DNA of 64,000 bases from a virus: the IMG/VR virus record IMGVR_UViG_3300005573_000054, positions 32,001 to 96,000 of that record, one strand, 5' to 3'. The position numbers and the translations under genes are program-made. Below the pieces are notes generated by a model that was not told the DNA's origin, did not search any database, and was given only the letters and a program-made list of their open reading frames with translations. Each line of letters opens with the position of its first letter. The first letter of the stretch is position 1. Positions 9,749 through 62,391 of the stretch are shown one piece after another.

Positions 9749-9757
9749 GAGGTGAGA

Positions 9758-10273: not shown

Positions 10274-10276
10274 GAG

Positions 10277-11593: not shown

Positions 11594-11607
11594 AAGGAGG
11601 TGGGAAA

Positions 11608-12366: not shown

Positions 12367-12370
12367 TAAG

Positions 12371-12460: not shown

Positions 12461-12484
12461 TTTTTCTGTTAAGAGGTAGAGAAC

Positions 12485-12919
12485 ATGAAAGCGTGTCTTT
12501 TTGAACAAGTAGTTGCTCAAGTAAATGAAGGTAAGTTTTTTGAAGACAAAGAGATACTCAAGCTTCACGACGAGGACGGACGAACAGTTGCCCACGTTCA
12601 AGCAGAACAAGGTTGGATTACAGAAGACAAGGAAATACTCAAGTTGAAAGATATAAGCGGGTGGACAGTTGCCCACCAACAAGTGGTTCGAAGATGGATA
12701 ACAGAAGACCCAGAGATTCTAGTTTTGGCTACCATAAGAAACATCCTAGTGGCAGAAGTTCAAGCATGTTATTCAGGTTGGACCCCAGAAGAGGAAACCA
12801 GGGAAAAGTTCGTGCAAGAACTTCGGAAGAATTTTCCAGAGGAGAAAGCACAAGAGATACTTCACAATGTTGATAGTCTAGCAAAAGAGTATTTCAAGAA
12901 AATCTTATTCGGGAGGTAG
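12485..12919 (+). CDS. Repeat protein 5 (2 repeats)
   Basis: Same family. Confidence 0.88.
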   Translation: MKACLFEQVVAQVNEGKFFEDKEILKLHDEDGRTVAHVQAEQGWITEDKEILKLKDISGWTVAHQQVVRRWITEDPEILVLATIRNILVAEVQACYSGWTPEEETREKFVQELRKNFPEEKAQEILHNVDSLAKEYFKKILFGR

Positions 12920-12922
12920 GAG

Positions 12923-13678: not shown

Positions 13679-13817
13679 CGAGATAAATCAAGATAAACAA
13701 ACAAGAAATATCAAAGAAAGAACCATTATAATTGTTTAATAAGTTTTTTCGTGTTGAAGTTACAAGAAAATTTTTCCAAAAATATCTCAAAAAATCTTAT
13801 AGACGGGAGGTGAGGAA

Positions 13818-14810
13818 ATGGAAGCGTATACTTTTGAACAAGCAATCACTCAAGTGAATGAAGGTAAGTTTTTCGAAGACAAGGAGATACTTAAACTTCA
13901 CGATGAGAATGGGTGGACTGTTGCCCATGAACAAGCTAAACGAGGGTGGACAACTGAAGATAAGGAGATCCTCAAGCTTCACGATAAATCATGGCGAAGT
14001 GTAGCCCATGAACAAGCGAAACGAGGATGGACAACAAATAACAAGGAGATACTCATGTTACGTGACACTTTCAGATGGTCTGTTGCTCATATTCAAGCAG
14101 AACATGGGTGGACAACTGAAAATAGAGAGATTCTCAAGTTGTTCGACTGGTCCAACTGGACTGTCGCCCATGAACAAGCAAGACGAGGGTGGACAACTGA
14201 AGACAAGGAAATTCTTAGACTTTATAGCGACTATGGATATACTGTAGCTTATATCCAAGCAAAACATGGATGGATAACAAATGACAAAGAAATACTCAAA
14301 TCGAAAGATAAGTATGATACAAGTGTAGCGCATCTACAAGCAAAACATGGCTGGACCACCGAAGATAAGGAGATACTCAAGCTTTATGATAAGAATAAGT
14401 GGTCTGTTGCTCATGAACAGGCAAGACAAGGATGGACTACTGAAGATAAGGAAATCCTCAAGTTAGAAGACAATTGTGGTACAAGTGTCGCTCATATTCA
14501 GGCAGAACAAGGATGGACAACTAAAGATAAGGAGATACTCAAGTTGCATGATGTCTGTGGGTGGACAGTCGCCCATGAACAAGCTAAACGTGGTTGGATA
14601 ACTGAAGATCCAGAGATTCTTCTTTTCGCAGAAAGACTGGGAGTCACTGTTGCAGAAATTCAGGTAGAATATTCAGGCTGGACACTAAGCGAAGACATCC
14701 AAGAAAAACTACGGCAAGAACCTTACAGACTCAGTGAAGAGGAGTTTAACAAGTTAATGTCGTCAATCAACGAAGCTTCAAGACGGTTCTTCAAGAATAC
14801 TCTAAGATAG
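13818..14810 (+). CDS. Repeat protein 7 (9 repeats)
   Basis: Same family; RBS GGGAGGTG. Confidence 0.9.
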   Translation: MEAYTFEQAITQVNEGKFFEDKEILKLHDENGWTVAHEQAKRGWTTEDKEILKLHDKSWRSVAHEQAKRGWTTNNKEILMLRDTFRWSVAHIQAEHGWTTENREILKLFDWSNWTVAHEQARRGWTTEDKEILRLYSDYGYTVAYIQAKHGWITNDKEILKSKDKYDTSVAHLQAKHGWTTEDKEILKLYDKNKWSVAHEQARQGWTTEDKEILKLEDNCGTSVAHIQAEQGWTTKDKEILKLHDVCGWTVAHEQAKRGWITEDPEILLFAERLGVTVAEIQVEYSGWTLSEDIQEKLRQEPYRLSEEEFNKLMSSINEASRRFFKNTLR

Positions 14811-14824
14811 AAGGAGGCGGGAAA

Positions 14825-15817
14825 ATGGAAGCGTATACTTTCGAACAAGCAATCACTCAAGTGAATGAAGGCAAGTTCTTCGAAGATAAGGAGATACTCA
14901 AACTTCACAATAAGAATGGGTGGACTGTAGCCCATGAACAAGCGGAGCATGGTTGGACAACTGAAGACAAGGAGATACTTAGACTTTGCGACAAGAATGG
15001 GTGGACTGTGGCCCATGAGCAAGCTAGACGAGGGTGGACTACTGAAGACAAAGAGATACTCAAGTTGAGAGATCAGTACGGAGTAAGTGTCGCTCATATT
15101 CAAGCAGAACGAGGATGGACAACCGAAGACAAGGAGATACTCATGTTACGTAATATTTATGGGTGGACTGTTGCCCATGAGCAAGCTAGACAAGGGTGGA
15201 CAACTGAAGACCCAGAGATTCTTTTTCTCGTAGATAGACTAGAAATCACTGTAGCTGAAATACAAGCAAAACATGGATGGATGACAAATGATAAAGAAAT
15301 ACTCAAATTGAAAGATATGTACGGCACAAGTGTAGCACATTTTCAAGCAGAACATGGTTGGACTACAGAAGACAAGGAGATACTCAAGCTTTGTGATAAG
15401 AATAACTGGTTTGTTGCTCACGAACAAGCGAAACGAGGATGGACGACTGAAGACAAAGAGATACTCAAGTTAGATGACGATCAAGGTGTAAGTGTCGCTC
15501 ATATTCAAGCAGAACGAGGATGGACAACTGAAGACAAAGAGATACTCATGTTGCGTAATATCTATGGGTGGACTGTTGCCCATGAACAAGCTAGACAAGG
15601 GTGGACAACTGAAGATCCAGAGATTCTAGTCTTAGCCACTCGTGATAACTTAATGGTAGCCGAAGTTCAAGCAAGCTATTCAGGCTGGACACTAAGCGAA
15701 GACATTCAAGAAAAACTGCGACAAGAACCTTATAGACTTAGTGAAGAGGAGCTTAACAAGTTAATGTCGTCAATCAACGAAGCTTTAAGACGGTTCTTTA
15801 AGAATGTTCTAAGATAA
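14825..15817 (+). CDS. Repeat protein 8 (9 repeats, one being an internal terminal-type VAEIQA unit)
   Basis: Same family. Confidence 0.9.
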   Translation: MEAYTFEQAITQVNEGKFFEDKEILKLHNKNGWTVAHEQAEHGWTTEDKEILRLCDKNGWTVAHEQARRGWTTEDKEILKLRDQYGVSVAHIQAERGWTTEDKEILMLRNIYGWTVAHEQARQGWTTEDPEILFLVDRLEITVAEIQAKHGWMTNDKEILKLKDMYGTSVAHFQAEHGWTTEDKEILKLCDKNNWFVAHEQAKRGWTTEDKEILKLDDDQGVSVAHIQAERGWTTEDKEILMLRNIYGWTVAHEQARQGWTTEDPEILVLATRDNLMVAEVQASYSGWTLSEDIQEKLRQEPYRLSEEELNKLMSSINEALRRFFKNVLR

Positions 15818-15831
15818 AAGGAGGTGAGAAA

Positions 15832-16677
15832 ATGGAAACATATACTTTTGAACAAGCGATTGCCCAAGTGGATAAAGGTAAGTTTTTCGAAGACAAGGAG
15901 ATACTTAAACTTCACGACGAAAACGGGTGGACTGTTGCCCATAAACAAGCTAAGTATGGTTGGACAACTGAAAACAAGGAGATACTCAAGTTAAAGGATA
16001 ACCGTGGTATAAGTGTAGCCCATGAACAAGCTAAACGAGGGCGGACAACAGAAGACCCAGAGATTCTTAAGTTGTCCGACTGGTCCAGATGGACTGTTGC
16101 TCATATTCAAACAGAACATGGGTGGACAACTGAAGACAAGGAAATACTCAAGTTAAACGACAAATGGGAACGGGCTGTGGCCTACATTCAAGCTAGATAT
16201 GGATGGACTACAGAAGACAAGGAAATACTCAAGTTAAGAGACAACCATGGGCGGTCTGTTGCCCACGAACAAGCGGAGCTAGGATGGACAACGGAAGACA
16301 AGGAAATTCTCAAACTTTGTAACAAGAGCGGTACAAGCGTAGCACATTTACAAGCGGAACAAGGATGGACTACAGAAGACCCAGAAATCCTCAAGCTTTG
16401 CAATAAGTACGGTGTAAGTGTAGCTCATGAACAAGCTAAACGTGGTTGGATAACTGAAGATCCAGAGATCCTAGTTTTAGCCGCCACAGGAAACTTCCTA
16501 GTAGCAGAAGTTCAAGCAGAGTATTCAGGTTGGAAACCAGCGGAGGAAGTCGAGGAAAAGTTCGTGCGAGAACTTCAGAAGAATTTTCCAGAGGAGAAAG
16601 TACAAGAAATACTTCATAATATTGATGATCTAGCAAAAAATATTTCGAGAAAATCTTGTTTGGGAGGTAGGAGATGA
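15832..16677 (+). CDS. Repeat protein 9 (7 repeats; -1 frameshift in the last codons)
   Basis: Same family; the A-run at ~16635-16640 is one base short relative to paralog ends LAK.YF.KILFGR*. Confidence 0.88.
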   Translation: METYTFEQAIAQVDKGKFFEDKEILKLHDENGWTVAHKQAKYGWTTENKEILKLKDNRGISVAHEQAKRGRTTEDPEILKLSDWSRWTVAHIQTEHGWTTEDKEILKLNDKWERAVAYIQARYGWTTEDKEILKLRDNHGRSVAHEQAELGWTTEDKEILKLCNKSGTSVAHLQAEQGWTTEDPEILKLCNKYGVSVAHEQAKRGWITEDPEILVLAATGNFLVAEVQAEYSGWKPAEEVEEKFVRELQKNFPEEKVQEILHNIDDLAKNISRKSCLGGRR

Positions 16678-17834
16678 ATCGAAACGACACTCTAATGTAT
16701 AAACAAGTAATTGCTCAAGTAAATAAGGGTAAGCTCTTCGAAGACAAGGAGATACTCAAGCTTTGTGATAAGTACGGTACAAGTGTAGCTCACGTTCAGA
16801 CAGAACGAGGGTGGACAACCGAAGATAAGGAAATTCTTACACTTCATAAAAAGTCTGGATGGACTGTTGCCCATCAACAGGCAGAACGTGGATGGACAAC
16901 AAATAACAAGGAGATACTCAAGCTTTGCAACAAAAGCGGTATAAGTGTAGCTCACGTTCAAGCTAAACATGGGTGGACAACTGAAGACAAGGAAATACTC
17001 AAGCTTCATGATGACTTTGGGCGGACTGTAGCTCATGAACAAGCTAAACAAGGATGGACCACTGAAGACAAAGAAATACTCGAACTTTGTGATGTCACTG
17101 GATGGACTGTAGCTCATGAACAAGCTAAACAAGGATGGACTACTGAAGACAAAGAAATACTCGAACTTTGTGATGATTCTGTATGGACTGTAGCTCATGA
17201 ACAAGCTAAACAAGGATGGACTACTGAAGACAAGGAAATACTCGAACTTTGTAATGACGATGGATGGTTTGTTGCCCATGAACAAGCTAAACATGGGTGG
17301 ACAACTGAAGACAAGGAAATACTCAAGCTTCATGATGACTCTGGATGGACTGTAGCTCATGAACAAGCTAAACAAGGATGGACTACTGAAGACAAGGAGA
17401 TACTTAAACTATGTAACAACCCTGGATGGACTGTAGCTCATGAACAAGCTAAACAAGGATGGACTACTGAAGACAAGGAGATACTCAAGTTAAGAAACCA
17501 GTATGATCGGACTGTTGCTCATGAACAAGCTTCTCACGGATGGACGATAGAAAACAAGAAAATACTTAAGTTGAAAGATAAACATGGTACAAGTGTAGCA
17601 CATTTACAGGCAGAGCAAGGATGGACAACAGAAGATCCAGAAATCCTTTTACTCACAGATAAATCAGGGACTACCGTCGCAGAAATTCAAGCAAGGCGTT
17701 CAGGTTGGTTACCAAGTGAAGACACTCAAGAAAAGATACGGCAAGAGCTCTGTAAATCTGCGGTAAGGAGGTTCAACAGTTTAATAACAGCTGCTTCGAA
17801 AAAGTTTTTCCAACAGACTCTGAAAGGAGAGTAA
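16674..17834 (+). CDS. Repeat protein 10 (11 repeats)
   Basis: Same family; central units homogenised to WTVAHEQAKQGW. Confidence 0.9.
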   Translation: MNRNDTLMYKQVIAQVNKGKLFEDKEILKLCDKYGTSVAHVQTERGWTTEDKEILTLHKKSGWTVAHQQAERGWTTNNKEILKLCNKSGISVAHVQAKHGWTTEDKEILKLHDDFGRTVAHEQAKQGWTTEDKEILELCDVTGWTVAHEQAKQGWTTEDKEILELCDDSVWTVAHEQAKQGWTTEDKEILELCNDDGWFVAHEQAKHGWTTEDKEILKLHDDSGWTVAHEQAKQGWTTEDKEILKLCNNPGWTVAHEQAKQGWTTEDKEILKLRNQYDRTVAHEQASHGWTIENKKILKLKDKHGTSVAHLQAEQGWTTEDPEILLLTDKSGTTVAEIQARRSGWLPSEDTQEKIRQELCKSAVRRFNSLITAASKKFFQQTLKGE

Positions 17835-17867
17835 TATAGAAACCACAACCTAAATGAGGTAAAGAAA

Positions 17868-18461
17868 ATGAAAGTATTTACTTTTAAGCAAGCGGTTGCC
17901 CAAGTAACTAAAGGTAAGTTCTTTGAAGATAAAAAAATCCTCAAGCTTCACGACAAGAACGGGTGGACTGTTGCCCATGAACAAGCGAAGCGAGGATGGA
18001 CCACCGAAGACAAGGAAATACTCAAGCTTTGTGATAAGTACGGAGTGAGTGTAGCCTATGAACAAGCGAGACATGGCTGGACCACTGAAGACAAGGAAAT
18101 TCTCAAGCTTTGCAACAAAAGCGGTACAAGTGTAGCTCATATACAAGCGAGATATGGCTGGACTACTGAAGATAAGGAGATACTCAAGCTTCGTAATAAG
18201 TACGGTACAAGTGTAGCACACGAACAAGCGTACCGAGGATGGGTAACAGAAGACCCTGAGATTCTAGTTTTAACTACCATAAGTAACTTCCTAGTAGCAA
18301 AAGTTCAAGCATGTTATTCAGGTTGGACTCCTGAAGGGGAAACCAGAGAAAAGTTCGTACAAGAACTCCAAAAGAATTTCCCAGTGGAGAAAGTACAAGA
18401 AATACTTTACGATATTGATGATCTAGCAAAAAAGTATTTCAAGAAAATTTTGTTAGAATAG
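17868..18461 (+). CDS. Repeat protein 11 (4 repeats)
   Basis: Same family; C-cap nearly identical to that of protein 2. Confidence 0.9.
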   Translation: MKVFTFKQAVAQVTKGKFFEDKKILKLHDKNGWTVAHEQAKRGWTTEDKEILKLCDKYGVSVAYEQARHGWTTEDKEILKLCNKSGTSVAHIQARYGWTTEDKEILKLRNKYGTSVAHEQAYRGWVTEDPEILVLTTISNFLVAKVQACYSGWTPEGETREKFVQELQKNFPVEKVQEILYDIDDLAKKYFKKILLE

Positions 18462-18472
18462 GAGGTGAGAAA

Positions 18473-19384
18473 GTGGAGTCGTATACTTTTGAACAAGCGT
18501 TTATTCAAGTACTTAGTGGCAAATTTTTCCAGGACAAAGAAATACTTAAATTATATAACGAAGATGGACGGACTATTGCTCATGAACAAGTAAGACAAGG
18601 ATGGAGAACAGAAGATAAAGAGATACTCAATTTATATGACAAAGATAGATGGACTGTTGCCCATCAACAGGCAGAACGTGGATGGACAACAAATAACAAG
18701 GAGATACTCAAGCTTTGTGATAAGTACGGTACAAGTGTAGCTCACGTTCAAGCAGAACACAGATGGACTACTGAAGACAAGGAAATACTCAGGCTTTGCA
18801 ACGACTCTGGACGAACAGTCGCTCATATTCAAGCATCTCATGGATGGACTACAGAAGACCTAGAAATCCTCAAGCTTTGTGGTAATCTTGAATGGACTGT
18901 CGCTCATGAACAAGCAAAACAAGGATGGACAACAGAAGATCCAGAAATCCTCAAGCTTTGCGACAAGAACGGGTGGACTGTGGCTCATGAACAAGCACGC
19001 CAAGGATGGACTACTGAAGACAAGGAGATACTCAAACTTCGCGACAAGACCGGGTGGACTGTTGCTCACGAACAAGCAGATCGAGGTTGGACAACAGATG
19101 ACAAGGAGATACTCAAGTTATGTAATATCTTTGGTCGGTTTATCGCTCATGTACAAGCGCTTCGAGGATGGACCACAGAGGATCCAGAGATTCTAGTCTT
19201 GGCCGCTTTTAACAACTTAACAGTAGCAGAAGTTCAAGCAGAACATTCAGGATGGGAACCGGAAGGAGAAGTCAAGGAAAAGTTCGTACAAGAACTTCAG
19301 GAGAACTTTCCTAAGGAAATAGTACAAGAAATACTCTGTAACATTGATAAGTTGAGGAAAAAGTATTTCAAGAGAATCTTATAA
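18473..19384 (+). CDS. Repeat protein 12 (8 repeats), GTG start
   Basis: Same family; RBS AGGAGGTG. Confidence 0.9.
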   Translation: MESYTFEQAFIQVLSGKFFQDKEILKLYNEDGRTIAHEQVRQGWRTEDKEILNLYDKDRWTVAHQQAERGWTTNNKEILKLCDKYGTSVAHVQAEHRWTTEDKEILRLCNDSGRTVAHIQASHGWTTEDLEILKLCGNLEWTVAHEQAKQGWTTEDPEILKLCDKNGWTVAHEQARQGWTTEDKEILKLRDKTGWTVAHEQADRGWTTDDKEILKLCNIFGRFIAHVQALRGWTTEDPEILVLAAFNNLTVAEVQAEHSGWEPEGEVKEKFVQELQENFPKEIVQEILCNIDKLRKKYFKRIL

Positions 19385-19399
19385 ACGGGAGGTGAGAAA

Positions 19400-19588
19400 A
19401 TGGAAACATATATTTTTAAGGAAGTAATCATTCAGGCAAAACGCTCAGGATGGATGTTGAATGAAGATATTCAAGAAAAACTACAACAAGAACCTTGTAA
19501 ATTTAACGAAGAAAGATATAATAAATTAGTATTATCAACTAATAAAGCTTCAAGACAATTCTTCCAAAATATCCTAAAAAAAGAGTAA
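19400..19588 (+). CDS. Repeat protein 13: N-cap fused directly to C-cap (zero repeats)
   Basis: METYIFKEVIIQ joined to AKRSGWMLNEDIQEKLQQEP...; intact RBS GGGAGGTG. Confidence 0.75.
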   Translation: METYIFKEVIIQAKRSGWMLNEDIQEKLQQEPCKFNEERYNKLVLSTNKASRQFFQNILKKE

Positions 19589-19593
19589 CAAAA

Positions 19594-20472
19594 ATGAATA
19601 TAAGAAACTATAATCTAAGCGACGAAGAAATTCTAGAATTACCTATTGAGAAACAACGTCTAGTTGCGTATGCCCAAGTTCAACGTGGGTGGACCACAGA
19701 AAACAAAACAATCCTCCAACTCTCTTTATACTGGGGACGAACAATAGCTCATGAACAAGCCAGACAAGGATGGACAACAGAAGATAAAGAAATACTTACA
19801 ACAGTAGATATTTTTGGAGAATATGTAGCTCATATTCAAGCGCAGAATGGCTGGGTTACGGAAGATCCAGAGATTCTTAAACTTGCTAACAAAGAAAAAC
19901 AAACAGTTGCTCATATTCAAGCAGAACAAGGATGGACAACAAATAACAAGGAAATTCTCAAACTTTGTAACTCTAGAAAATGGACTGTTGCCCATATTCA
20001 AGCTAGACGAGGATGGACAACTGAAGACATAGAAATCCTCAAGTTAACTAACAAGCTTGGTCAGTCCGTCGCTTTTTTCCAGGCAATGAATGGATGGACT
20101 ACAGAGAATCTAGAAATACTCAAACTTCACGATAAAAATGGGTGGACTGTTGCCCATGAACAAGCTAGACGTGGATGGACTACAGAAAATTTCAAGATTC
20201 TTAAACTAGCTGACAAAAATGGATGGACTGTTGCTCATGAACAAGCTAAGCGTGGATGGATTACAAGAGATTTAAGAGTTCTTACTATCAAAGATATGAG
20301 AAACAATACAGTAGCTGAAATACAAGCAAAACACTCTGGATGGACTCCTGATGATGAACTCGAGAAGAAGTTACTTCAAAAGCTTCGAAAACGTTCTGTA
20401 GAAGAAGCATCAAGAGTGTTGAAATCAATAAACGATTTATCTCTAGAGTTTTTTAGAAACGCCTTTAGATAG
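19594..20472 (+). CDS. Repeat protein 14 (divergent caps)
   Basis: Same 27-aa repeat. Confidence 0.88.
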   Translation: MNIRNYNLSDEEILELPIEKQRLVAYAQVQRGWTTENKTILQLSLYWGRTIAHEQARQGWTTEDKEILTTVDIFGEYVAHIQAQNGWVTEDPEILKLANKEKQTVAHIQAEQGWTTNNKEILKLCNSRKWTVAHIQARRGWTTEDIEILKLTNKLGQSVAFFQAMNGWTTENLEILKLHDKNGWTVAHEQARRGWTTENFKILKLADKNGWTVAHEQAKRGWITRDLRVLTIKDMRNNTVAEIQAKHSGWTPDDELEKKLLQKLRKRSVEEASRVLKSINDLSLEFFRNAFR

Positions 20473-20486
20473 TAAGGAGGTATAAA

Positions 20487-21335
20487 ATGGATGAAGATCG
20501 GTCTCAAATTCAAATTATGGAAAAGAAGTATCCTAAAAAGAAACTTCTAGAAATTGTTGATGAGACTCTGAAGAAAACTCTTGCACATGAGTTAGCCATC
20601 CAAGGAATGATTACAACTTCAAGAAAGATTTTACTTACCGCTGATAGAAATGGGAGAACTGTTGCCCATTATCAAGCTCTCTCTGGATATGTAGTTACAG
20701 AATCAGATATTTTAAAACTTGCTGATCTATGTGGAACGACGGTTGCACATCTACAGGCAAGTAAGGGATGGACTACAAAATCAAAAAAGATCTTAAAACT
20801 AGCTGATATAGATGGATGGTCAGTAGCTCATGAAATAGCTAGCAAAGGACACTTTTTTCCAGAAACTCAAAAGGAAGTTTTAAAAATCAGCGATATAAGC
20901 GGGTGGACTGTTGCCCATGAACAGGCAAGTAGAGGATGGATAACAAACGACAAGGAAATCCTCAGTCTTTCTACTCTTAGGGGATGGACTGTTGCTCATG
21001 AACAAGCAAAACATAAATGGACCACAGAAGATCCAGAGATACTAATGTTGAGAGATAAAGAGAAGTGGTCTGTGGCACATGAGCAAGCGTATCAAGGATG
21101 GACTACAAATGATATTAATATCCTTAAAATACGTGATGCTCTTGGAGTGTGTGTGTCTATGGTTCAGATCGAAGTTTCTGGGTGGATTTATCCTTCCAGT
21201 TTGGAAGAAAAGTTTTCCCGAGATTGTTTGTCTCTTATGAAGAAGATTTACACCAAAAAGGGTATTAATATGTTCCCGGAGGAGGAAAAAGATGGAAAGG
21301 AAGTTAAAACCAAGACAAGTAGTTTGCTCTTGTAA
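20487..21335 (+). CDS. Repeat protein 15 (most divergent in the array)
   Basis: GWTVAHEQA-type repeats, different termini. Confidence 0.85.
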   Translation: MDEDRSQIQIMEKKYPKKKLLEIVDETLKKTLAHELAIQGMITTSRKILLTADRNGRTVAHYQALSGYVVTESDILKLADLCGTTVAHLQASKGWTTKSKKILKLADIDGWSVAHEIASKGHFFPETQKEVLKISDISGWTVAHEQASRGWITNDKEILSLSTLRGWTVAHEQAKHKWTTEDPEILMLRDKEKWSVAHEQAYQGWTTNDINILKIRDALGVCVSMVQIEVSGWIYPSSLEEKFSRDCLSLMKKIYTKKGINMFPEEEKDGKEVKTKTSSLLL

Positions 21336-21609
21336 AAACTGTGGAGTAACATTTTCTTATGAAACAATATCAGGAACTCGTAGAAAATACTGTTCAGAAA
21401 AATGTAGAAAAGAGTCATTTGAAAGACGTCTTCAAAATAGAGTTTCCAGACCAAGAAAAAAGTCACTCGAGAACAAAAAAATATTTATCTGTCCTAAGTG
21501 TAGAAAGAAACATAATGATGGATACAAAGATTATAAAAACTCTTTAGAAAAACCTAAGTGGAAGTACTGTTATGAATGTAAAAGATTAGTCTCACAGTAT
21601 AACTTATGA
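21292..21609 (+). CDS. Small basic zinc-finger protein
   Basis: CKNC..YCSEKC, CPKC and CYEC motifs; GGAGG RBS. Confidence 0.75.
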   Translation: MERKLKPRQVVCSCKNCGVTFSYETISGTRRKYCSEKCRKESFERRLQNRVSRPRKKSLENKKIFICPKCRKKHNDGYKDYKNSLEKPKWKYCYECKRLVSQYNL

Positions 21610-22235: not shown

Positions 22236-22604
22236 ATGGACAAATATAGAATATGGGACAAACATGAAAAGAGATGGCTTGTAAGAAATGCTACAATCTG
22301 GGACCTAGTTACTTTATTCCAAAATAACCCAGTGTTTACAGAACCTACTGAGTCGCTTAAGAAACGTCTAGTCTTTCAGAGGTCCACGAGAATCACAGAC
22401 TTGAAAAGAAGAGAAATCTTCGAAGGTGACATAATCAAAGATATGAGAGGTCAGAGGTGTGTGATCGTCTATGAATCAAGTATTGATCAAGCAGGTTTTG
22501 TAGCAGAGGAGATCTCGAAAAACACCGAGAAAACCAAACAGTGGTACTGGATGGGTCTGGTTATCGGAAACGTCTTTGAGAACGAGGAACTGCTCAAGCC
22601 GTGA
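22236..22604 (+). CDS. YopX-family phage protein
   Basis: YRIWDK, Q.ST..TD...EIFEGDII, VIGNVFENEELL. Confidence 0.85.
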   Translation: MDKYRIWDKHEKRWLVRNATIWDLVTLFQNNPVFTEPTESLKKRLVFQRSTRITDLKRREIFEGDIIKDMRGQRCVIVYESSIDQAGFVAEEISKNTEKTKQWYWMGLVIGNVFENEELLKP

Positions 22605-22622
22605 TGTGTATCATCTCCAGCA

Positions 22623-23172
22623 AGTGACTCACCACATAAAAAACGATACCGCAAAACTCCGCAGACGGTCTAGCGAGTTCTGAGATCACGTGGGCTATAT
22701 ATTTACATAGCGACGACAAAAAATGAATTTTTCACCCAAGACTTAAAACTCAACATTTAAAAACGACACCACTTCAGAAAGAGATTCTCGAGTAACTCGA
22801 GTTGCACTCCAGACACTTAAAACAAGTCAACCTCAAGACAACTCAAACCGTATACCAAAACACCAGTGACTCACCACATAAAAAACGATACCGCAAAACT
22901 CCGCAGACGGTCTAGCGAGTTCTGAGATCACGTGGGCTATATATTTACATAGCGACGACAAAAAATGAATTTTTTTACCTAAGCATCAACGTAGTTGTCC
23001 TGATATTCTGAGATTACAAGGGTAATATTCTCTCAAAGATGAGTCGAGAAGCAACAGAGGAACAAGAAGATCCAGTGATTCACCACATAAAAAACGATAC
23101 CGCAAAACTCCGCAGACGGTCTAGCGAGTTCTGAGATCACGTGGGCTATGTATTTACATAGCGACGACAAAA
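22623..23172. repeat. Three ~100-110-bp direct repeats separated by unique spacers
   Basis: Copies start at 22623, 22865 and 23074; partial copies at ~25273 and ~26103. Confidence 0.95.
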
Positions 23173-23307
23173 GAAGTTACAAATTTCCCATATAGGTCTA
23201 ACACAGACTCGATAGAACCCCAAGTCTACCATCACTGTATTTAATATACTATCCATATATTTATTTAGAAGAGTGATATATATCCGCGGGGAGAAAGCCC
23301 TCCTTTA

Positions 23308-23334
23308 AGCTACAACTCTTCCAGAGTTGTAGCT
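23308..23334. other. Perfect 12-bp hairpin preceded by CCTCCTTT
   Basis: AGCTACAACTCT-TCC-AGAGTTGTAGCT. Confidence 0.8.
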
Positions 23335-23410
23335 AATGTTATATAAATTATTATATAATCGTTATATAAGTTATCGTCATATAGACTACTATCCTGTAAT
23401 CTAGGAGATT

Positions 23411-23722
23411 GCTATCCCACAATATAAGAGATTGCTATATCCCAATATAAGCTATCGTTATACACTTCGATATAAGAAATCGCTATCCCACAATATAAGA
23501 GATTGCTATATCCCAATATAAGCTATCGTTATACACTTCGATATAAGAAATCGCTATCCCGCAATATAAGAGAGTGCTATATCCCAATATAAGCTATCGT
23601 TATACACTTCGATATAAGAAATCGCTATCCCGCAATATAAGAGAGTGCTATATCCCAATATAAGCTATCGTTATATACCTCGATATAAGAAATCGCTATC
23701 CCACAATATGAGAGACTGCTAT
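23411..23722. repeat. 71-bp tandem repeat, about 4.4 copies
   Basis: GCTATCCC.CAATATAAGAGA.TGCTATATCCC... units start at 23411, 23482, 23553, 23624 and 23695. Confidence 0.95.
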
Positions 23723-23744
23723 TATACGCTATTACTTATACGCA

Positions 23745-24550
23745 CTACTGCTATACAAGCTGCTGTTATAGAGACTACTGCTATATAAGCTGCTGCTATA
23801 TAATATAAGCCGCTGCTATATAATCGTCTATATAATGCGAGCTACTATTGTATAGACTGCTGCTATATAGACTGCTGCTTGTGTAATCCCTAAATATTAT
23901 CTAAAGATAATTTGGAGATGTGACATTAAGATTGCGAGAAGAAACCCTCTATTAGACAGCAGCTATATAAGCTGCTGCTGTATAAGTTGCTGTCATGACA
24001 TTATATCTTCATACTATTCCAAAAATATTCGAGAGTATTTGGAATTGACGACTATTATAGATTGCAGGGAAATCCCTTATTATGTAGTAGTTTGCATAAA
24101 CTGCTATTGTATGATCGTTTATATAATCGTCTATATAATGCGAGCTATCACTATATAAGCTGCTGCTATATATGCTACTGCGATTATATGCTATCGCCTA
24201 TATAAGCTGCTGCTATATATGCTACTGCTATATAATCGTCTATATAATGCGAGCCATCACTATATAAGCTACTGCTATATATGCTATCGCTTATATAAGC
24301 TGCTGCTATATATGCTATCGCCTATATAAGCTGCTGCTATAGAGACTACTGCTATATATGCTACTGCTTATATATGCTACTGCTATATAAGCTGCTGCTA
24401 TATATGCTACTGCTATATAATCGTCTATATAATGCGAGCTACTGCTATAGAGACTACTGTTATATAAGCTGCTGCTATATAAGCTGCTACTATATATGCT
24501 ACTGCTTATATAAGCTGCTGCTATACAGTATAAACTGCTGTTATATAGTT
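23745..24550. repeat. Mosaic short-repeat tract (GCTGCTGCTATATA / GCTACTGCTATA / TATAATCGTCTATATAATGCGAGC modules)
   Basis: Many interleaved 12-25-bp modules, followed by an AT-rich stretch at ~24580-24650. Confidence 0.9.
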
Positions 24551-24734
24551 ATCACATTATCGCTTTTCTATCTATCATTCCAAATATTATATTAATATTA
24601 GTATATAATTAATAACATGATAAAGAGCGATAATATTAATAACAAATAACAGTAGTTCACCCTACTATCTTTATTGCGGGTTCCCTGTAGGTTGTGCTGT
24701 AGGTTTACAGTTTCTCTTAGCGGACAATAATCTT

Positions 24735-25007
24735 TTAAAAGAGGGTAGAGCTCACCGTTACATCTTCTCCGTCGTCTATACCGGTCTCTAGAACATGCCC
24801 TCTCGGGGAGTGAATCCTCGTCGACTCTGAAGCAGGCCCGAGTGTGGTGACGATCAGGTCTTTCCTTATCATCTCTAAATATATCACTTTATATACGGAG
24901 TAGGGAAATGATGTTAGCAAAGATGTAAGCAGCACCAGTAGAGATGTAAGTGTACCATTCACCTTCCTCGATCTTGCTCTTTTTGACTTCGATTTCACTC
25001 TCTCCAA
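24735..25007 (-). CDS. Possible small minus-strand protein (basic N-terminus plus hydrophobic segment)
   Basis: Minus-strand AAAAAAGGAG upstream but poorly spaced; TTG or GTG start. Confidence 0.25.
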   Translation of the reverse strand: MERVKSKSKRARSRKVNGTLTSLLVLLTSLLTSFPYSVYKVIYLEMIRKDLIVTTLGPASESTRIHSPRGHVLETGIDDGEDVTVSSTLF

Positions 25008-25419
25008 TTCTCCTTTTTTAGGACTGTTCTAGCGGACACGTTTACAGCGCGACGTGAGGCGTCGTCAGACGCATGTAGACGTATGATCTTCAATTTTTAT
25101 TCTCTGATAGGGGTTGGATTGAGGACTTTTTAAGTTTTCGAGTGACTCAAGTTATATATCAACAGTGTCGAGAGAGACGATATTATCAAGTGACTCAAGT
25201 AAGTGTACTAGACGTTTAAGACAACTCGAGTTACGTGTGAGAGTACAAGGGAAAAGTTTGAGATTCACGATTTAAAAACGATACCGCAGAATTTCTGAGA
25301 CGGTCTCGCTGGTTCTAGGACTACAAGGGTAATTATTCTTCTATTAGAGTGGATCAAGAGTACAAGTTTCTTCATAAGTGGTTTATCTAAAAAAATTCCA
25401 AAACGAAGGAGGATTGGCT

Positions 25420-26780: not shown

Positions 26781-27665
26781 ATGAACGTTGAAGTAAAGTT
26801 TAGAAGGGAAAATCCAGTTTTTCGAGCTAGTTACAAGAGTAATAATCAAGGAAAGAAACGCTTGACTATACAAGAGATTCTATCAAGGATCCAAAAACAG
26901 GAATTCTTTGAAGACGAAGAGTATCTGAAGGTAAGATTCAAAGGAAAAGGTGGATGGACTGTCGCTCATGAACAAGCTAGACGGCATTGGAAACCTGAAA
27001 ATTCTCTTCCAAAACACATTCTTGAAATGAGAACACAGTCTGGATGGACAGTGGCTCATCAGATGGCTCGAGCAGGACTTTTTACAAACGACAAGGAAGT
27101 TCTTCTACTTCGTGATAAAAGCAATAATACAGTTGCTCATGTACAAGCTGGTCGTGGGTGGATTACAGAAGATCCAGAGATTCTCAGACTTGCTGATAAG
27201 AGTGGATGGACTGTTGCCCATGAGCAAGTAGAACAAGGATGGATAACAGAAAACAAGGAGGTACTCAAGTTACGTGATAAGTATGGATGGACCGTCGCCC
27301 ATAGACAAGCAAGGTATGGGTGGACGACAAATGACAAAGAGATACTCAGATTATATAACGAGGATGGATGGACTGTCGCTCATGAACAAGTTAGACGGGG
27401 ATGGATAACTGAAGACAAGGAGGTGCTCATGTTGCGTGATATCTATGGTTGGACTGTAGCTCATGAACAAGCAAAATTTGGATGGGTAACTGGAGATAAA
27501 GAAATTCTTAGACTGTCTGATAATACCGGATGGACTGTTGCTCACGTCCAGGCGGAGTCTGGGTGGATGACAGATGACTCTGAGATACTAAATCTTTCCG
27601 ACAAGGACGGAACTACTGTCTCTGAAGTTATAGATAGATTTGTCGCAAAGACGCTATCGTTTTGA
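26781..27665 (+). CDS. Repeat protein 16 (orphan copy outside the array)
   Basis: GWTVAHEQ..GWITEDKE repeats, FFED N-cap. Confidence 0.88.
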   Translation: MNVEVKFRRENPVFRASYKSNNQGKKRLTIQEILSRIQKQEFFEDEEYLKVRFKGKGGWTVAHEQARRHWKPENSLPKHILEMRTQSGWTVAHQMARAGLFTNDKEVLLLRDKSNNTVAHVQAGRGWITEDPEILRLADKSGWTVAHEQVEQGWITENKEVLKLRDKYGWTVAHRQARYGWTTNDKEILRLYNEDGWTVAHEQVRRGWITEDKEVLMLRDIYGWTVAHEQAKFGWVTGDKEILRLSDNTGWTVAHVQAESGWMTDDSEILNLSDKDGTTVSEVIDRFVAKTLSF

Positions 27666-45608: not shown

Positions 45609-47573
45609 ATGGCTGAAGAATATCAAGTACCCGTAATAGGTGATTCAATAGTGAATAAGCCTCTGAGTTCTCCAAGAATTCAGACTTATTCAGCTATTGA
45701 TAAGGCTTTTGAGAAACTGCAGAGTTTGATGGCTGAGGAGAACAAGTCTGCTATTTCTGAAGAGGCAGTAACTCCTTGGACAGGAACAGGGCCTCTAGAA
45801 AATGCAGAAGAGATGTTTCAAACTGATTTAGACTCTGATAATGAAGAGGGTGAAGACGAAGAGCATGTTGAGCAAGTTCAAGGTCTTCTAGAGGCAAAAC
45901 GTGGAAGGAAGAAGGGTCGTAGAAGTAGGAAGAAGAAGCTCTTTGAGGAAGACGACTATGACTATCTTCTAGAAGCAGATGACGAAGATATCGAAGACGT
46001 CGAAGACACTGACGAAGAGGCTGAAGAAGAACCTGAAGAGGAATCCGAGGAAGATTGGTATGATCTTCTAGAGGCAAAACGCGGAAGGAAGAAGGGTCGT
46101 AGGAGTAGGAAGAAGAAGCTCTTTGAGGAAGATGATTACGATATCGATGATCTTCTAGAAGCAGATATGGAAGACGTTGAAGACGATGAGGAGCTTGAGG
46201 AAGATTGGTATGATCTTCTAGAGGCAAGGCGTAGAAGGAAGAAAGGTCGTAGGAAGAAGAAGCTCTTTGAGGAAGACGACTATGATTACCTCCTGGAAGC
46301 GGACGATGAAGACATTGAAGACGATGAGGACGAGGAAGAGCCTGAAGAGGAATCCGAGGGAGATTGGTATGATCTTCTAGAGGCAAAACGTGGAAGGAAG
46401 AAAGGTCGCAAGAGCAGGAAGAAGAAGCTCTTTGAGGAAGACGACTATGATTACCTCCTGGAAGCGGACGATGAAGACATCGAAGATGATGAGGAAGAGC
46501 CCGAAGAGGAACCTGAAGAGGAATCCGAGGAAGATTGGTATGATCTTCTAGAGGCAAAACGTGGAAGGAAGAAGGGTCGTAGGAAGAAGAGACTCTTCGA
46601 GGAAGACGACTATGACTATCTTCTAGAGGCCGATGATGAAGACATCGAAGATGATGAGGATGAGGAAGAGCCTGAAGAGGAATCCGAGGAAGACTGGTAT
46701 GATCTTCTAGAAGCAAGGCGTGGAAGAAAGAAGGGCCGTAAGAGCAGGAAGAAGAAGCTCTTTGAGGAAGACGACTATGATTACCTCCTGGAAGCGGACG
46801 ATGAAGACATCGAAGATGATGAGGAAGAGCCCGAAGAGGAATCCGAGGAGGATTGGTATGATCTTCTAGAGGCAAGACGTGGAAGAAAGAAGGGTCGTAA
46901 GAGCAGGAAGAAGAGACTCTTCGAGGAAGATGACTATGATGTTGATGATCTTCTAGAGAGTGAAGTTGATGACCTTTTAGAGGAAGACTTTTTAAAAAAA
47001 AGTTTAGATGATTCAGGAGAATATTCTCTCGAGTCTATTGAACTTTTAGCAGAAGCTATAAAGAAGAAGTCGAAGTCTTCAAGAGGGAAAAGGAAAAAAA
47101 GAGCGTTGAAAAAGCTGATGGAAGCTCTGTGGATCCTTGAAGGAGACACCGAAGAAATTGACGATGAAGATCTAAAAGTTGATGAAGAAGGCATGGATCT
47201 TGACGAATGTGAGTTGTCTGGTAAAAACAAATACGAACTTCTTGACGAAGAGGACTTTGACGAGGGAGATTTAGAAGATTACGACTACGAAGATCTTCTC
47301 GAAGAGATTGAACTGGAAGAAGCTAAAAGAAAGAAGTCTTCGAAAAGTAAAAAGAAAGCGAAGGCTAAGAAAGTATTAGAAGAGCTTGAGACTCTACTAG
47401 AAGAAGATAAGGAAGAAGATGAAGAAAAAGACGAAGATCTCAATGAAGACCTCGATCTCGGTAATACAGACCTCGAGGAACCTGAGGAGAGAGTGATGAA
47501 GCATAACGAGAAGAAGGCTTCATTGTTCGAAGAATCTCTAGTAGAGTCTATACTCAAGGACCTGGATATCTAA
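45609..47573 (+). CDS. Alternating acidic/basic repeat protein, probable prohead core or internal head protein
   Basis: Seven tandem units WYDLLE-AKRGRKKGR..KKKLFE-EDDYDYLLE-ADDED...; recurrent LxE motifs. Confidence 0.55.
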   Translation: MAEEYQVPVIGDSIVNKPLSSPRIQTYSAIDKAFEKLQSLMAEENKSAISEEAVTPWTGTGPLENAEEMFQTDLDSDNEEGEDEEHVEQVQGLLEAKRGRKKGRRSRKKKLFEEDDYDYLLEADDEDIEDVEDTDEEAEEEPEEESEEDWYDLLEAKRGRKKGRRSRKKKLFEEDDYDIDDLLEADMEDVEDDEELEEDWYDLLEARRRRKKGRRKKKLFEEDDYDYLLEADDEDIEDDEDEEEPEEESEGDWYDLLEAKRGRKKGRKSRKKKLFEEDDYDYLLEADDEDIEDDEEEPEEEPEEESEEDWYDLLEAKRGRKKGRRKKRLFEEDDYDYLLEADDEDIEDDEDEEEPEEESEEDWYDLLEARRGRKKGRKSRKKKLFEEDDYDYLLEADDEDIEDDEEEPEEESEEDWYDLLEARRGRKKGRKSRKKRLFEEDDYDVDDLLESEVDDLLEEDFLKKSLDDSGEYSLESIELLAEAIKKKSKSSRGKRKKRALKKLMEALWILEGDTEEIDDEDLKVDEEGMDLDECELSGKNKYELLDEEDFDEGDLEDYDYEDLLEEIELEEAKRKKSSKSKKKAKAKKVLEELETLLEEDKEEDEEKDEDLNEDLDLGNTDLEEPEERVMKHNEKKASLFEESLVESILKDLDI

Positions 47574-59825: not shown

Positions 59826-60530
59826 ATGCCTTGGAATGATAATGTTTTTACGAGAGTTTTTGGTGGTACAAAAGAGACGTATGTAGGTGACCCGTTTGTA
59901 CGAGGTTATGGATACTGGTGGATAGATCTACCAGAGAGTCTTAAAGACGTGAGTGCGGCTGATAGTGCGAAACTCGCGGCGCTTGCTCGTGGAGTAACAG
60001 GACTTGCTTCAATCACTCTTGATGTGGAAGATATAGAGGGTCTCGGTGGAGTAAGGTTTGCTATTCCTACAAAGTTGACTATGCCAAGTAGAGTGTCGGT
60101 AACGTATATGGAAGTTCAACAGAACTTTATCTTCAACTTGCATAACAGATGGATCAATATGATTAGAGACCTTAGGTATGGTACAACTGCTCTTATGGGT
60201 CTTGATGGATATACTAAGTCGAAGTACTCGGGAATAGGGTACACCTGGTTGACTCTTCCCGACGGTGAGACGATAGTAGAAGCATACGTCTTGACAGGTC
60301 TTGTACCCACGACTCTTCCTGTATCAGACATGGGATTTGAGCTTGGTACTGTAGGTAAGGTCGATCTGACGATCGAGTACGCATTCGACCATATTTACTT
60401 CTACAGGATTCCCGATGAGAGCGCTTCTGCTACAAGTACTGGAATCTCTAGCGCGTTTGAGAGTAAGTTAAAGGGTCTAATTGGAGAAGTCAAGAAGTAT
60501 TATCAACAGTTTAACAACTCACTGGCTTAA
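59826..60530 (+). CDS. Tail tube protein
   Basis: Directly after the sheath gene; V.Y.E...W, L.PDG......Y...G..P, IEYAFD pattern. Confidence 0.7.
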   Translation: MPWNDNVFTRVFGGTKETYVGDPFVRGYGYWWIDLPESLKDVSAADSAKLAALARGVTGLASITLDVEDIEGLGGVRFAIPTKLTMPSRVSVTYMEVQQNFIFNLHNRWINMIRDLRYGTTALMGLDGYTKSKYSGIGYTWLTLPDGETIVEAYVLTGLVPTTLPVSDMGFELGTVGKVDLTIEYAFDHIYFYRIPDESASATSTGISSAFESKLKGLIGEVKKYYQQFNNSLA

Positions 60531-60544
60531 TAGATAACATATTC

Positions 60545-60569
60545 GACCCTCTACCTTGAGTAGAGGGTC
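60545..60569 (+). terminator. Hairpin after the tail tube gene
   Basis: GACCCTCTAC-CTTGA-GTAGAGGGTC, weak T tail. Confidence 0.6.
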
Positions 60570-60589
60570 CATCTTTCCACGTAAAAGTC

Positions 60590-60601
60590 GATATATATAA
60601 T
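60590..60601 (+). promoter_or_regulatory. Putative promoter element GATATATATAAT
   Basis: Identical to 5677-5688. Confidence 0.5.
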
Positions 60602-60604
60602 TAT

Positions 60605-60795
60605 GAGGGTAGACGCCTCGTAGCCCTGTTCCCGAGGGCGTCTATTCCTCTGAAAACGTTGAGGTTCGGGAGTTCAGGGGGCGGTTTTGTGCATCCCACC
60701 GCCATACCGAAAAGGATGCACTGGAGGGCACGCTCTTTGAAAGCCCTGGAGCTCCCGCATGTGCCCTCCACCCTCCTAATTCCCCTCCTTTTTTT
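60605..60795 (+). ncRNA. Unknown multi-pseudoknot structured RNA (~190 nt)
   Basis: GC-rich island with five helices, two of them crossing; promoter-like motif upstream and T7 downstream. Confidence 0.7.
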
Positions 60796-60915
60796 GTGTA
60801 GCAATATTTTTTTCTTGCTTTGAAACAAATCGAACCAGCGAGAACGAGTGAGAAAGTCTGAGATACACGAGGGTTATTTTTTCTAACGTCTCTTCTGTAC
60901 AAATAGGATTTAACT

Positions 60916-62391
60916 TTGCATCAAAGGGAGAAACAAGTGCAAGAAACTCAACAGGATCAAGCCTCACAGAAAGCAGTATCCCTTCTTCCCTTTCAGGAAC
61001 AAGTCGTAAAAAAATTCTTCACAACTTCCAATGGTAAACTCTTGGTTGGCCTTCCAGTGGGAACTGGAAAAACGATTATCACACTTAAGATAATTGAGCA
61101 CCTTTTCAGAGAAAACCCAGACGCAAGAGTACTAATTATTACTCCGGCGGGTCTACGACTTAACTTCGTGGAGAGTAGGTCTAAAGTCCCAGATGTTCCT
61201 CCAATCGTGATGTGTACCTCTTTTTCTCAACTTAAGAGTGTTATCAATGCTGGAAGTATACCAGTGATCAGTTATAACTTTATCGTTAAGTTAGTGAATA
61301 GTTCTGAATTCGTGGCTCTCGAGTGGGACCTTGTGATCTTCGATGAGCTTCATTTTACGAAGAACTACCAAACTCTTACGTCAAGAGCATGTGTTCTGTT
61401 GGCTTCGAGATCTAAAATGAGGTTAGGTCTCACTGCGAGTTATATAGCCAATAAGTTGGAAGAGTTTGCTACGATGTTGTATATTATAACTTTAGATGAG
61501 TTTGCGAAGACGTTGACAAGTATTGAAAAGATTAGAATCTATTCTTTTTTTATTAAGAAGTACACTTTTATAGTAAAAGAGGAAGAAGTTAATATTCATA
61601 TAAGAAGGCCTTCGCTTCAGTTTACGAGAGTTCCTTGTGTTCTTTCAGAGCAGGAGAATATCGCTTATAAATACGTAGAAGGAAAACTTAATCCTATGAC
61701 TTTACTTAAGATGAAACTTCTACAATTTACTGATTTCAAAAGAGTCCTTAACTGGGTTATAGCCGCTCAACAAGTACTTCTCTTTCCCGCGTATATTATT
61801 AAATCGGAACCTGATTCTCCAAATAAACCAACAGGTATTTTTCCTGAAGTTGGAATAAAGGTAATAGAGTGTGCTCGTCATATTCTTGAAAACGAAGCGG
61901 CTAAACATATGGTCTTTACTCCGTACGTGACATTCGGAGTAAACGTTATTGAGAACTTTTTTTCTCATCATGGAATTCGTTGTCTTAAATATGTAGGTGG
62001 AACGTCTCTTGAAGAACGACAAGAAATAATATCTAAGTTTACAGACCCAGATAGTGGTTATAATGCTATTATTTTATCACTGGCTGGAAAAGAAGGTATA
62101 AATCTTCCAAACACAGATTTTATTCATTGTTTAGGATACCACTGGAACCCTGAAGTGATGGCTCAGGTGTTCGGAAGAGCAAGGAGGATGACTTCTACGA
62201 AACCAGTTGTTGAAGTAAGGCTGTATGAGGCTATAAAACCTCATTCTAAGTTGAAAGCGCTTTTTATGGGGTTTTTTAGTAAGATGAAGTTTTTAGCGTC
62301 TATTATTACTATCGATGGAATGATGTTACAGGCATTGAAGAGGAAGTCGATACTTAAGGCTGTTGTAGTAGAAACGATTCATAAATCATGA
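60916..62391 (+). CDS. SNF2-like SF2 helicase (start uncertain)
   Basis: PVGTGKT, DELH, LTAS, GKEGINL, HWNP, QVFGRARR. Confidence 0.88.
   Translation: MHQREKQVQETQQDQASQKAVSLLPFQEQVVKKFFTTSNGKLLVGLPVGTGKTIITLKIIEHLFRENPDARVLIITPAGLRLNFVESRSKVPDVPPIVMCTSFSQLKSVINAGSIPVISYNFIVKLVNSSEFVALEWDLVIFDELHFTKNYQTLTSRACVLLASRSKMRLGLTASYIANKLEEFATMLYIITLDEFAKTLTSIEKIRIYSFFIKKYTFIVKEEEVNIHIRRPSLQFTRVPCVLSEQENIAYKYVEGKLNPMTLLKMKLLQFTDFKRVLNWVIAAQQVLLFPAYIIKSEPDSPNKPTGIFPEVGIKVIECARHILENEAAKHMVFTPYVTFGVNVIENFFSHHGIRCLKYVGGTSLEERQEIISKFTDPDSGYNAIILSLAGKEGINLPNTDFIHCLGYHWNPEVMAQVFGRARRMTSTKPVVEVRLYEAIKPHSKLKALFMGFFSKMKFLASIITIDGMMLQALKRKSILKAVVVETIHKS

Follow-up and report, generated by a model that had tools for sequence, protein, structure and literature searches.

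A previously undescribed folded RNA element, possibly a conditional terminator, between the tail tube and helicase genes of an uncultured jumbo phage

Between a tail tube gene and a helicase gene, the genome of an uncultured jumbo phage contains a genuine folded RNA element, previously undescribed and belonging to no known family. Comparison of two long sequence variants indicates that three hairpins of the element (P1, C and D) are securely kept by compensatory substitution. It also suggests that a 21-nt G-rich strand has two mutually exclusive pairing modes, apparently both conserved: one with the loops of these hairpins and one with a C-rich tail that runs into a stretch of seven U's. The function of the element is probably related to transcription. 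Tentatively, and as a possibility rather than a firm assignment, we read it as a plus-strand conditional terminator in the tube/helicase gap.

Setting and parts of the element

The window analysed here is a stretch of 64,000 nucleotides that corresponds to bases 32001–96000 of a 159,483-bp linear IMG/VR virus record with a CheckV completeness of ~50%. The source is an uncultured jumbo phage with a contractile tail and a genome GC content of 37.7%; its capsid is of the T4 type, and a gp23-type capsid gene is found in another part of the record. Its sheath protein is <31% identical to the sheaths of phiR1-37 and of Staphylococcus jumbo phages. IMG 3300009503, a sample with identical sequence, is among the listed hot-spring data sets. 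ARAGORN found no tRNA or tmRNA genes either in the window or in the 159-kb record. The element occupies the GC-rich gap between the tail tube gene and the helicase gene (Table 1); the latter starts 120–140 nt past the U-run, and all genes flanking the element share the plus orientation. The preliminary description had pointed to a GC-rich island at this place, and it proved to be the GC-richest 120-nt window of the 159-kb genome (0.62 versus 0.377). Klein, Misulovin and Eddy (2002, cited in PMC2704228) are said to have recognised GC-rich islands as RNA genes in AT-rich genomes of thermophiles. The likeness here is that the element is the GC-richest spot of a 37.7% GC genome, which is a shared principle of detection and not a shared family.

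Helices A, B, C, D and P1 all lie where they had been drawn at the outset, their order A B C B′ C′ D A′ D′ is right, and A abuts B and C′ abuts D as described. The flanks were borne out as well, with GATATATATAAT, which contains TATAAT, at 60590–60601 and a T7 run at 60789–60795. Helices B (60680–60685/60698–60703, 6 bp), C (60689–60696/60714–60721, 8 bp) and D (60722–60731/60761–60770, 10 bp) are perfectly Watson–Crick paired, and helix A (60667–60679/60744–60757) has 13 bp with one U·G pair and one bulged G. B and C together make an H-type pseudoknot with S1 of 6 bp, L1 of sequence UUU, S2 of 8 bp, L2 of 1 nt and L3 of 10 nt. The loop of D holds the near-invariant GCUCUUUGAAA (60732–60742) and the 3′ strand of outer A (60749–60757), and a local extension of D by GCUCU/GGAGC is possible. 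The hairpin that directly follows the tube-like gene is upstream context and lies outside the element; its stem is conserved in all variants, with changes confined to the loop.

Table 1. The element and its surroundings in window coordinates (L026 is a metagenome contig with a second long form of the element)
Feature	Position	Strand	Details
Tail sheath gene, 893 aa	57123–59804	+	Upstream of the element
Virion protein in tube position, 234 aa	59826–60530	+	Upstream of the element
10-bp hairpin GACCCTCTAC/GTAGAGGGTC	60545–60569	+	Directly 3′ of the stop of the tube-like gene; followed by a weak U tract
Sigma-70-type promoter-like site	60574–60601	+	TTTCCA, 16 nt, TATAAT; 10/12
Hairpin P1	60605–60650	+	16-bp stem, 12-nt loop 60621–60632; two C-G to U-A compensations versus L026
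PK-L 5′ strand, CCCUG of the P1 loop	60624–60628	+	Pairs with CAGGG 60675–60679
Core segment, ~113 nt	60640–60752	+	Missing from short-form sister phages; edges GAGGGC and GGAGC
Variable single-stranded linker	60651–60664	+	8/14 positions differ between the two long variants
G-rich "switching" strand	60665–60685	+	5′ strand of outer A 60667–60675, PK-L 3′ strand 60675–60679, 5′ strand of B 60680–60685
Hairpin C	60689–60721	+	8 bp; 17-nt loop carrying the 3′ strand of B, 60698–60703
Hairpin D	60722–60770	+	10 bp; 4 compensatory changes in 10 bp
C-rich tail, CCCUCC repeats	60771–60788	+	3′ strand of closing stem T
U7 run	60789–60795	+	Presumed intrinsic termination site; U6–U7 in all long and short variants
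34-nt motif GAACCAGCGAGAACGAGTGAGAAAGTCTGAGATA	60832–60865	+	Between the element and the helicase start
SNF2/ResIII-type helicase	60916 or 60937 to 62391	+	Downstream of the element
Fibre-like gene		+	Downstream of the element, with the helicase

Judged by sequence, the promoter-like site would place a putative transcription start at ~60607–60609, at the foot of P1. The −10 box reads TATAAT in both long variants of the element, TACAAT in the short form L010 and TGTAAT in the short forms L011/L014. A second AGTAGATATATATAAT is found at G000:157488, after a terminator and before an mRNA. The 34-nt motif downstream of the element has a second copy (30/31) at G000:156001–156034, 13 nt before an ATG, and an inverted copy of 79% identity at window positions 25282–25315. 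Found ahead of two genes and a third time in inverted orientation, this 31–34-nt motif (GAACCAGCRAGAACGAGTGAGAAAGTCTGAGRTA) probably acts as a promoter or operator of the phage, and the copy at 60832–60865 may serve as the helicase gene's own. We considered whether the whole promoter and RNA cassette had been inserted into a repeated intergenic module and rejected this, as the second locus shares only the 31-nt motif and the rest is noise.

Folding energies set the element apart from shuffled sequence on both strands. The plus strand has a minimum free energy (MFE) of −81.2 kcal/mol (z = −3.7; 0/200 shuffles as good), the minus strand is at least as stable (−84.9 kcal/mol, z = −5.0), and energy z-scores do not tell one strand from the other. 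Several features favour an RNA from the plus strand. These are the G·U pairs, together with one-sided G·U to A-U changes in P1, in A and in an alternative hairpin described below, as well as the promoter-like site, the U-run and the uniform plus orientation of the neighbouring genes. Helices A and B are unused in the nested MFE structure. The nested single-sequence MFE was rejected as a model for L026 because it breaks D with its four compensated pairs.

We also looked at coding potential. A protein-coding gene was rejected, since 1-nt and 2-nt indels between variants shift every reading frame; these indels sit in P1, in the linker and in the 3′ region of A. The substitutions pair across stems and lack codon periodicity. 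Gene callers predict an 86-aa ORF on the minus strand, whose sole match among 5.8 billion proteins is the window's own cluster (99% identical) and which has no Pfam match. A frame of seven codons at 60603–60623 (AUG/GUG ... UCG UAG) lies in the 5′ strand of P1 and keeps its stop in all variants. Leader-peptide attenuation was rejected, as this frame is without a ribosome-binding site and its start is upstream of the predicted transcription start; the frame is probably a by-product of conservation of the P1 stem.

Several other parts of the window are rich in repeats. More than 100 copies of an 81-nt (27-aa) repeat fill positions 8500–21350 and 26900–27450, where they span ~17 consecutive plus-strand ORFs of 140–440 aa with a motif close to ...GW.VAHEQA..GWT.EDKEILKL... 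Pfam gives only scattered matches of sub-threshold type for these ORFs, which look like a large tandem family of repeat proteins. A stretch of ~2.8 kb at 22600–25400 is nearly free of ORFs. It contains 110-nt repeats at 22623–23183 (found again at 26087), 71-nt tandem repeats at 23328–23753, dense arrays of 15–16-nt units such as CTATATAAGCTGCTG and CTATATATGCTACTG at 23750–24530, and a GC-rich stretch starting with GAGGGTAGAG at 24741–24860. An origin, an array of promoters or a regulatory region may lie here. Two more GC-rich islands flank a 99-aa ORF at 5685–6121; their hairpins use words of the GGAGG/CCTCC type (for example, GCCCCTCCCG...CGGGAGGGGC), and GC-rich hairpins of this kind seem to be the usual intergenic punctuation of this phage. 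Finally, seven tandem copies of a ~160–180-nt repeat (62–82% identical) at 45833–46987 presumably encode a repeat-domain protein.

Long and short forms of the element

In a search across 5.8 billion protein clusters, the tube protein matched only its own cluster and a single relative at 55% identity, and the contig that encodes this relative (L002) lacks the element. Contigs with an identical tube protein carry an identical element. A cluster-mate of the tube protein (P0003), with 93.6% amino acid identity, 89.6% nucleotide identity and 21.7% of third codon positions differing, was found on ten short contigs. A second long form of the element, ~83–85% identical to that of the window, is present in L012 and, as a complete copy, in L026, a metagenome contig found by pattern scan. 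The short forms (L010 and L011, the latter equal to L014) are without ~113 nt corresponding to window positions ~60640–60752. In them, ...GAGGGC/GGGGGC runs straight into C(T/C)C-(T/C)GCATGTACC, and the 5′ strand and loop of P1 are joined to ...(T/C)GCATGTACCCTC..., which corresponds to the 3′ strand of D. The short forms end in the C-rich repeat followed by a U6–U7 run, and only a hairpin and the U-run remain. Long and short forms both occur with the same tube protein in the same sample, which argues that the core is dispensable and polymorphic.

Wider searches returned little. Five sheath relatives (32–45% identity) have neither a GC island after the tube gene nor a match to the covariance model. 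No homologue was found by blastn against phage GenBank records or by IMG/VR scans anchored on the tube and helicase proteins, and exact-pattern scans came up empty both in 185,579 prokaryote genomes and in IMG/VR. The metagenome pattern scan gave L026 and seven chance matches to an unrelated repeat (L020–L025, L027). No variants were gained by searching with spurious ORF "proteins", and a search with the helicase protein yielded relatives at about 30% identity only. Within the phage record the element is single-copy, both by BLAST and by a covariance model of the core. As far as these sequence collections go, the element appears confined so far to one small, very thinly sampled phage lineage.

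Some of the contigs recovered by pattern scan call for comment in their own right. A ~200-nt repeated element (CCGACATTCCGCACC AAAAGTCGATATTTTAAATTTCGAG ... GGTGCGGAAT), matched by chance with the pattern of the promoter region, occurs in L020–L022, L024, L025 and L027, from unrelated metagenomes (Ga02138xx). Its ends are inverted, and it resembles a small mobile element. L026, over positions 275–2632, consists of the long element, then ~400 nt with no match in the phage record, and then a segment 90% identical to G000:1113–3066, which is the gp23-type capsid gene on the opposite strand, in place of the helicase. Synteny between L026 and the window ends ~70 nt downstream of the element, inside the 34-nt motif. 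This arrangement reflects either a strain rearrangement or a chimeric assembly at the repeated motif.

Compensatory changes and competing pairings

Covariation was assessed in the two-sequence alignment of the window and L026, with the 3′ partners of each helix slid by 1–3 columns as a control; all comparative support comes from these two distinct long sequences only. In the model as first drawn, nine pairs had changed on both sides and were still paired (two in P1, one in B, two in C and four in D), against 0–3 in the slid controls. Helix A has no compensated pair. Its outer 8–9 bp are invariant and pair in L026 with one bulged A, and two of its inner four bp are lost there. A scan for stacks conserved in both sequences revealed a new 5-bp helix, PK-L, between 60624–60628 and 60675–60679. 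The changes A60676G and G60678A, which break inner A, are matched exactly by U60627C and C60625U, the sole substitutions in the P1 loop, so that CCCUG/CAGGG of the window becomes CUCCG/CGGAG in L026 and PK-L is 100% paired in both. Once PK-L is substituted for inner A, the count of compensated pairs rises to 11 and 95% of cells are paired; the cells left unpaired are mostly alignment gaps.

To what extent could such stacks arise by chance? Stacks with at least two compensations numbered four in the alignment, whereas shuffling of columns produced 0.31 on average (P(≥4) = 0.003). A single stack of this kind arises in 26% of shuffles, and stacks with one compensation number 3.4 per shuffle. B, which is 100% paired in both variants, as is C, rests on one compensated pair of low statistical weight by itself, and we regard PK-L and B as plausible but individually weak. 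Checked against these homologous sequences, the structure proposed in the preliminary description thus fared unevenly. P1, C and D were upheld, B weakly so, and no compensated pair speaks for A. Of the double pseudoknot, the B/C part stands, with both stems compensated; the crossing of D by A shows no covariation, and the bases assigned to inner A covary instead with the P1 loop.

The stems drift at about the neutral rate (21.7% at tube third codon positions), with 4/10 positions changed per strand in D. Other segments are nearly invariant, with 0/11 substitutions at 60665–60675, 1/12 at 60732–60743 and 0/9 at 60749–60757. The invariant bases are, on the present alignment, those with two proposed partners. 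The G-rich strand at 60665–60685 carries three substitutions in all, each with a compensating partner, and it doubles as the 5′ strand of a closing stem, T. When P1, C and D are forced, this strand pairs with the C-rich tail and closes the core in both variants, and in both it is the best partner of the tail. In the window, stem T consists of 60668–60674 × 60778–60784 and 60676–60681 × 60772–60777 and ends one base before U7. In L026 it is formed by GGAGGG × CCCUCC directly before U7, with 6 bp extendable to 9 bp. The tail of the window is 12 nt longer (UAAUUCCCCUCC), and the insert is complementary to an upstream GGGAGUU and gives seven further bp. Stem T still reaches the U-run, a case of an indel that covaries with structure. 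In L026, T is further strengthened by the substitutions at 60676 and 60678.

Stem T shares bases with PK-L, B and A, so the 21-nt strand has two exclusive pairing modes. In the first, it pairs with the loops of P1, C and D (PK-L, B and outer A); three pairs are compensated, and the modelled result is a compact pseudoknotted fold close to the one first drawn. In the second, it pairs with the C-rich tail; stem T displays one-sided changes and the matching 12-nt insertion in the two sequences, and the modelled result is a branched intrinsic terminator with the 3′ end of T abutting U7. A scan with a consensus terminator description (loop of 3–8 nt) found no canonical terminator, and the branched T ends 0–1 nt before U7. 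PK-L can also be extended to an 18-bp alternative hairpin (60624–60641 × 60656–60679) that excludes the 3′ strand of P1. P1 and this hairpin are nearly isoenergetic in both variants (−21.8/−20.5 and −18.4/−19.0 kcal/mol).

Known RNA classes and possible functions

Searches against Rfam 15, which includes HDV-like, twister, pistol, hatchet, hammerhead and glmS ribozymes, pRNA, tmRNA, RNase P, 6S, GOLLD/ROOL and riboswitches, found no family at the gathering score in the whole window and none at E ≤ 10 within 60400–61000, in keeping with the initial failure to match the structure to a known class. L026 produced only microRNA and CRISPR-repeat noise, at 15–21 bits versus cut-offs of 39–105 (88–105 for the microRNA hairpins). 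The idea of a new class of non-coding RNA therefore retains its footing in the lack of an Rfam match and in the compensated P1, C and D (with B weaker), though not in the structure as originally drawn. The roles proposed along with it (ribozyme, packaging RNA, ribosome binder, antitoxin mimic) gained no specific support, and the sister phages without the core argue against an essential role such as packaging.

Partial likenesses to known RNAs are nevertheless apparent. The B/C module falls within the definition of an H-type pseudoknot and resembles those of frameshifting sites, SAM-II and preQ1-II cores and the T4 gene 32 leader in its two stems and short U-rich L1. As in these, L3 ends in A's and both stems still pair through compensatory changes; unlike classical H-type pseudoknots, the module is embedded in a larger fold and lies outside any reading frame or ribosome-binding site. 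Transcriptional riboswitches and attenuators share with the element a promoter-proximal structured domain, a strand in common with a stem that ends at a U-run, and a same-strand gene downstream, and here too the pseudoknotted fold would form before the 3′ strand of the terminator is transcribed. In contrast to riboswitches, the element matches no known aptamer family, its stem T is a long-range pairing around two hairpins, the helicase gene that follows has a possible promoter of its own, and sister phages do without the core. The put RNA of HK022, two stem-loops of ~70 nt without pseudoknots (PMC9378689), and EAR are likewise structured, untranslated, and placed after a promoter and before terminators, and they act on the transcribing polymerase; neither has a sequence or Rfam match to the element. 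The phi29 pRNA is another structured phage RNA of ~170–190 nt with its own promoter and covarying loop–strand complementarity. However, pRNA is essential and belongs to phi29-like podoviruses, whereas the present element is found in a contractile-tailed phage, has a dispensable core and lacks an Rfam match.

Since no form has lost the long hairpin, the C-rich repeats or the U-run behind the late tail genes, the most likely basal role is transcription termination or insulation. In the conditional terminator that we tentatively favour, the core of the long form would be an accessory module inside the terminator between the late tail operon and the helicase. All loop partners of the G-rich strand would emerge from the polymerase before the C-rich tail. 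If the pseudoknotted fold were stabilised by temperature, a ligand or a protein, it would withhold the 5′ strand of T and leave the tail free, and RNA polymerase would read through towards the helicase. If it failed, stem T would form, transcription would stop at 60789–60795 and an RNA of ~190 nt would be released. Consistent with this are the compensated helices, the exclusive pairings of the G-rich strand and the −10 box, a perfect TATAAT in the long forms and degraded in the short ones. On the other side, GGAGGG/CCCUCC repeats give many alternative pairings by composition alone, a stem reaching around two hairpins is unusual for an intrinsic terminator, the 34-nt motif intervenes before the helicase gene, and the core is missing from sister phages. 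We are doubtful that the element goes as far as defining a novel type of RNA switch, borne by phages from hot environments, in which the G-rich strand would toggle between three tertiary partners and the branched terminator. Such a switch would respond to temperature, to a metabolite or to a protein of phage or host and gate read-through into replication genes, coming from the tail operon or from the element's own promoter. A catalytic or decoy RNA of a new kind, built on this compact fold, is less likely.

Two rivals follow the conditional terminator closely in probability. In the first, although we hold it to be somewhat unlikely, the stretch from the foot of P1 to the U7 run might be a stand-alone gene for a trans-acting small RNA of ~190 nt. 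Its core or CCCUCC repeats would, for example, serve as a decoy to proteins of the host or of defence systems or pair with G-rich ribosome-binding sites, and the core would be an accessory trait gained or lost by strains. The structure is indeed bracketed by a promoter-like site and a U-run, and at another locus of this genome a box of the GATATATATAAT type also stands before an mRNA. The stable hairpin at the 5′ end, the compensatory changes and helices so rich in GC against an AT-rich background fit such a gene, the near-invariant unpaired stretches suggest recognition surfaces, and accessory functions typically come and go in this way among phages whose tube proteins are identical. But the −35 box is weak, some variants depart from the −10 box, the neighbourhood contains no target or partner gene, and conserved exclusive pairings of the G-rich strand are neither needed nor explained by a small RNA. 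The second rival, an ornate constitutive terminator or insulator, or a 3′-end stabiliser, of the highly expressed sheath/tube late operon, is rather improbable in our estimate; its hairpins would stop RNA polymerase and block 3′ exonucleases, and the long form would be a lineage-specific elaboration that does not switch. Such a terminator would fit an element that follows the late tail genes immediately, that has held on to its long hairpin, C-rich repeats and U6–U7 run in every variant, and whose closing stem ends at the U-run; other GC-rich GGGAGGGG/CCCCTCCC hairpins also stand between genes of this phage. There is further precedent in PMC10325885, according to which operon-end terminators can have unusually long stems that serve to resist antitermination; to these the element is akin in its place at the end of a late operon, its very long GC-rich stems and its U-run. 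The short form is essentially such a terminator, whereas the long form adds hairpins and loop–strand pairings that termination does not need: two internal hairpins with six compensatory changes, near-invariant loops, and compensated pairings of the P1 and C loops. The tube gene, moreover, has a hairpin of its own at 60545–60569.

Two further explanations carry much less weight. We think it very unlikely that the element acts at the level of DNA (as an origin, packaging or recombination site) or is an inert selfish or miniature repeat insertion with fortuitous palindromes. The core does behave as a ~113-nt indel between the similar words GAGGGC and GGAGC, the minus strand folds as well as the plus strand, and the synteny of L026 breaks shortly after the element. 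Yet miniature repeats of the MITE, REP or ERIC type would be a poor comparison for an element with one copy in the record (by BLAST and covariance model), no exact pattern in the prokaryote genomes or IMG/VR records scanned, and no terminal inverted repeats. Further, the 11 compensated pairs include some between a loop and a distant strand, which are impossible in double-stranded DNA, and G·U pairs and G·U to A-U changes are tolerated. The least probable explanation, which we would be surprised to see confirmed, is a self-cleaving ribozyme or other catalytic RNA built around a double pseudoknot (HDV-like/theta, twister, pistol, hatchet). Small ribozymes are known from phages, and the compact pseudoknotted fold and conserved junction sequences would agree with one. 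HDV-like ribozymes have the helix order P1 P2 P3 P3′ P1′ P4 P4′ P2′, a nested double pseudoknot, and the order of helices in the element is different; no Rfam ribozyme, HDV included, matches either variant even at E ≤ 10, and there is no adjacent tRNA or repeat unit that would need processing.

The narrow distribution of the element limits its general importance. Structured RNAs of phages are poorly catalogued, and the element adds to them a case whose helices have clear evolutionary backing, which matches nothing in the databases and for which nature provides a comparison of phages with and without the core. If it is only an ornate terminator, it shows how the terminators of such phages grow structured inserts. 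If the two folds are real, it would represent a compact and tractable switch between a pseudoknot and a terminator in a thermophile-associated jumbo phage, as well as a new RNA family for the databases.
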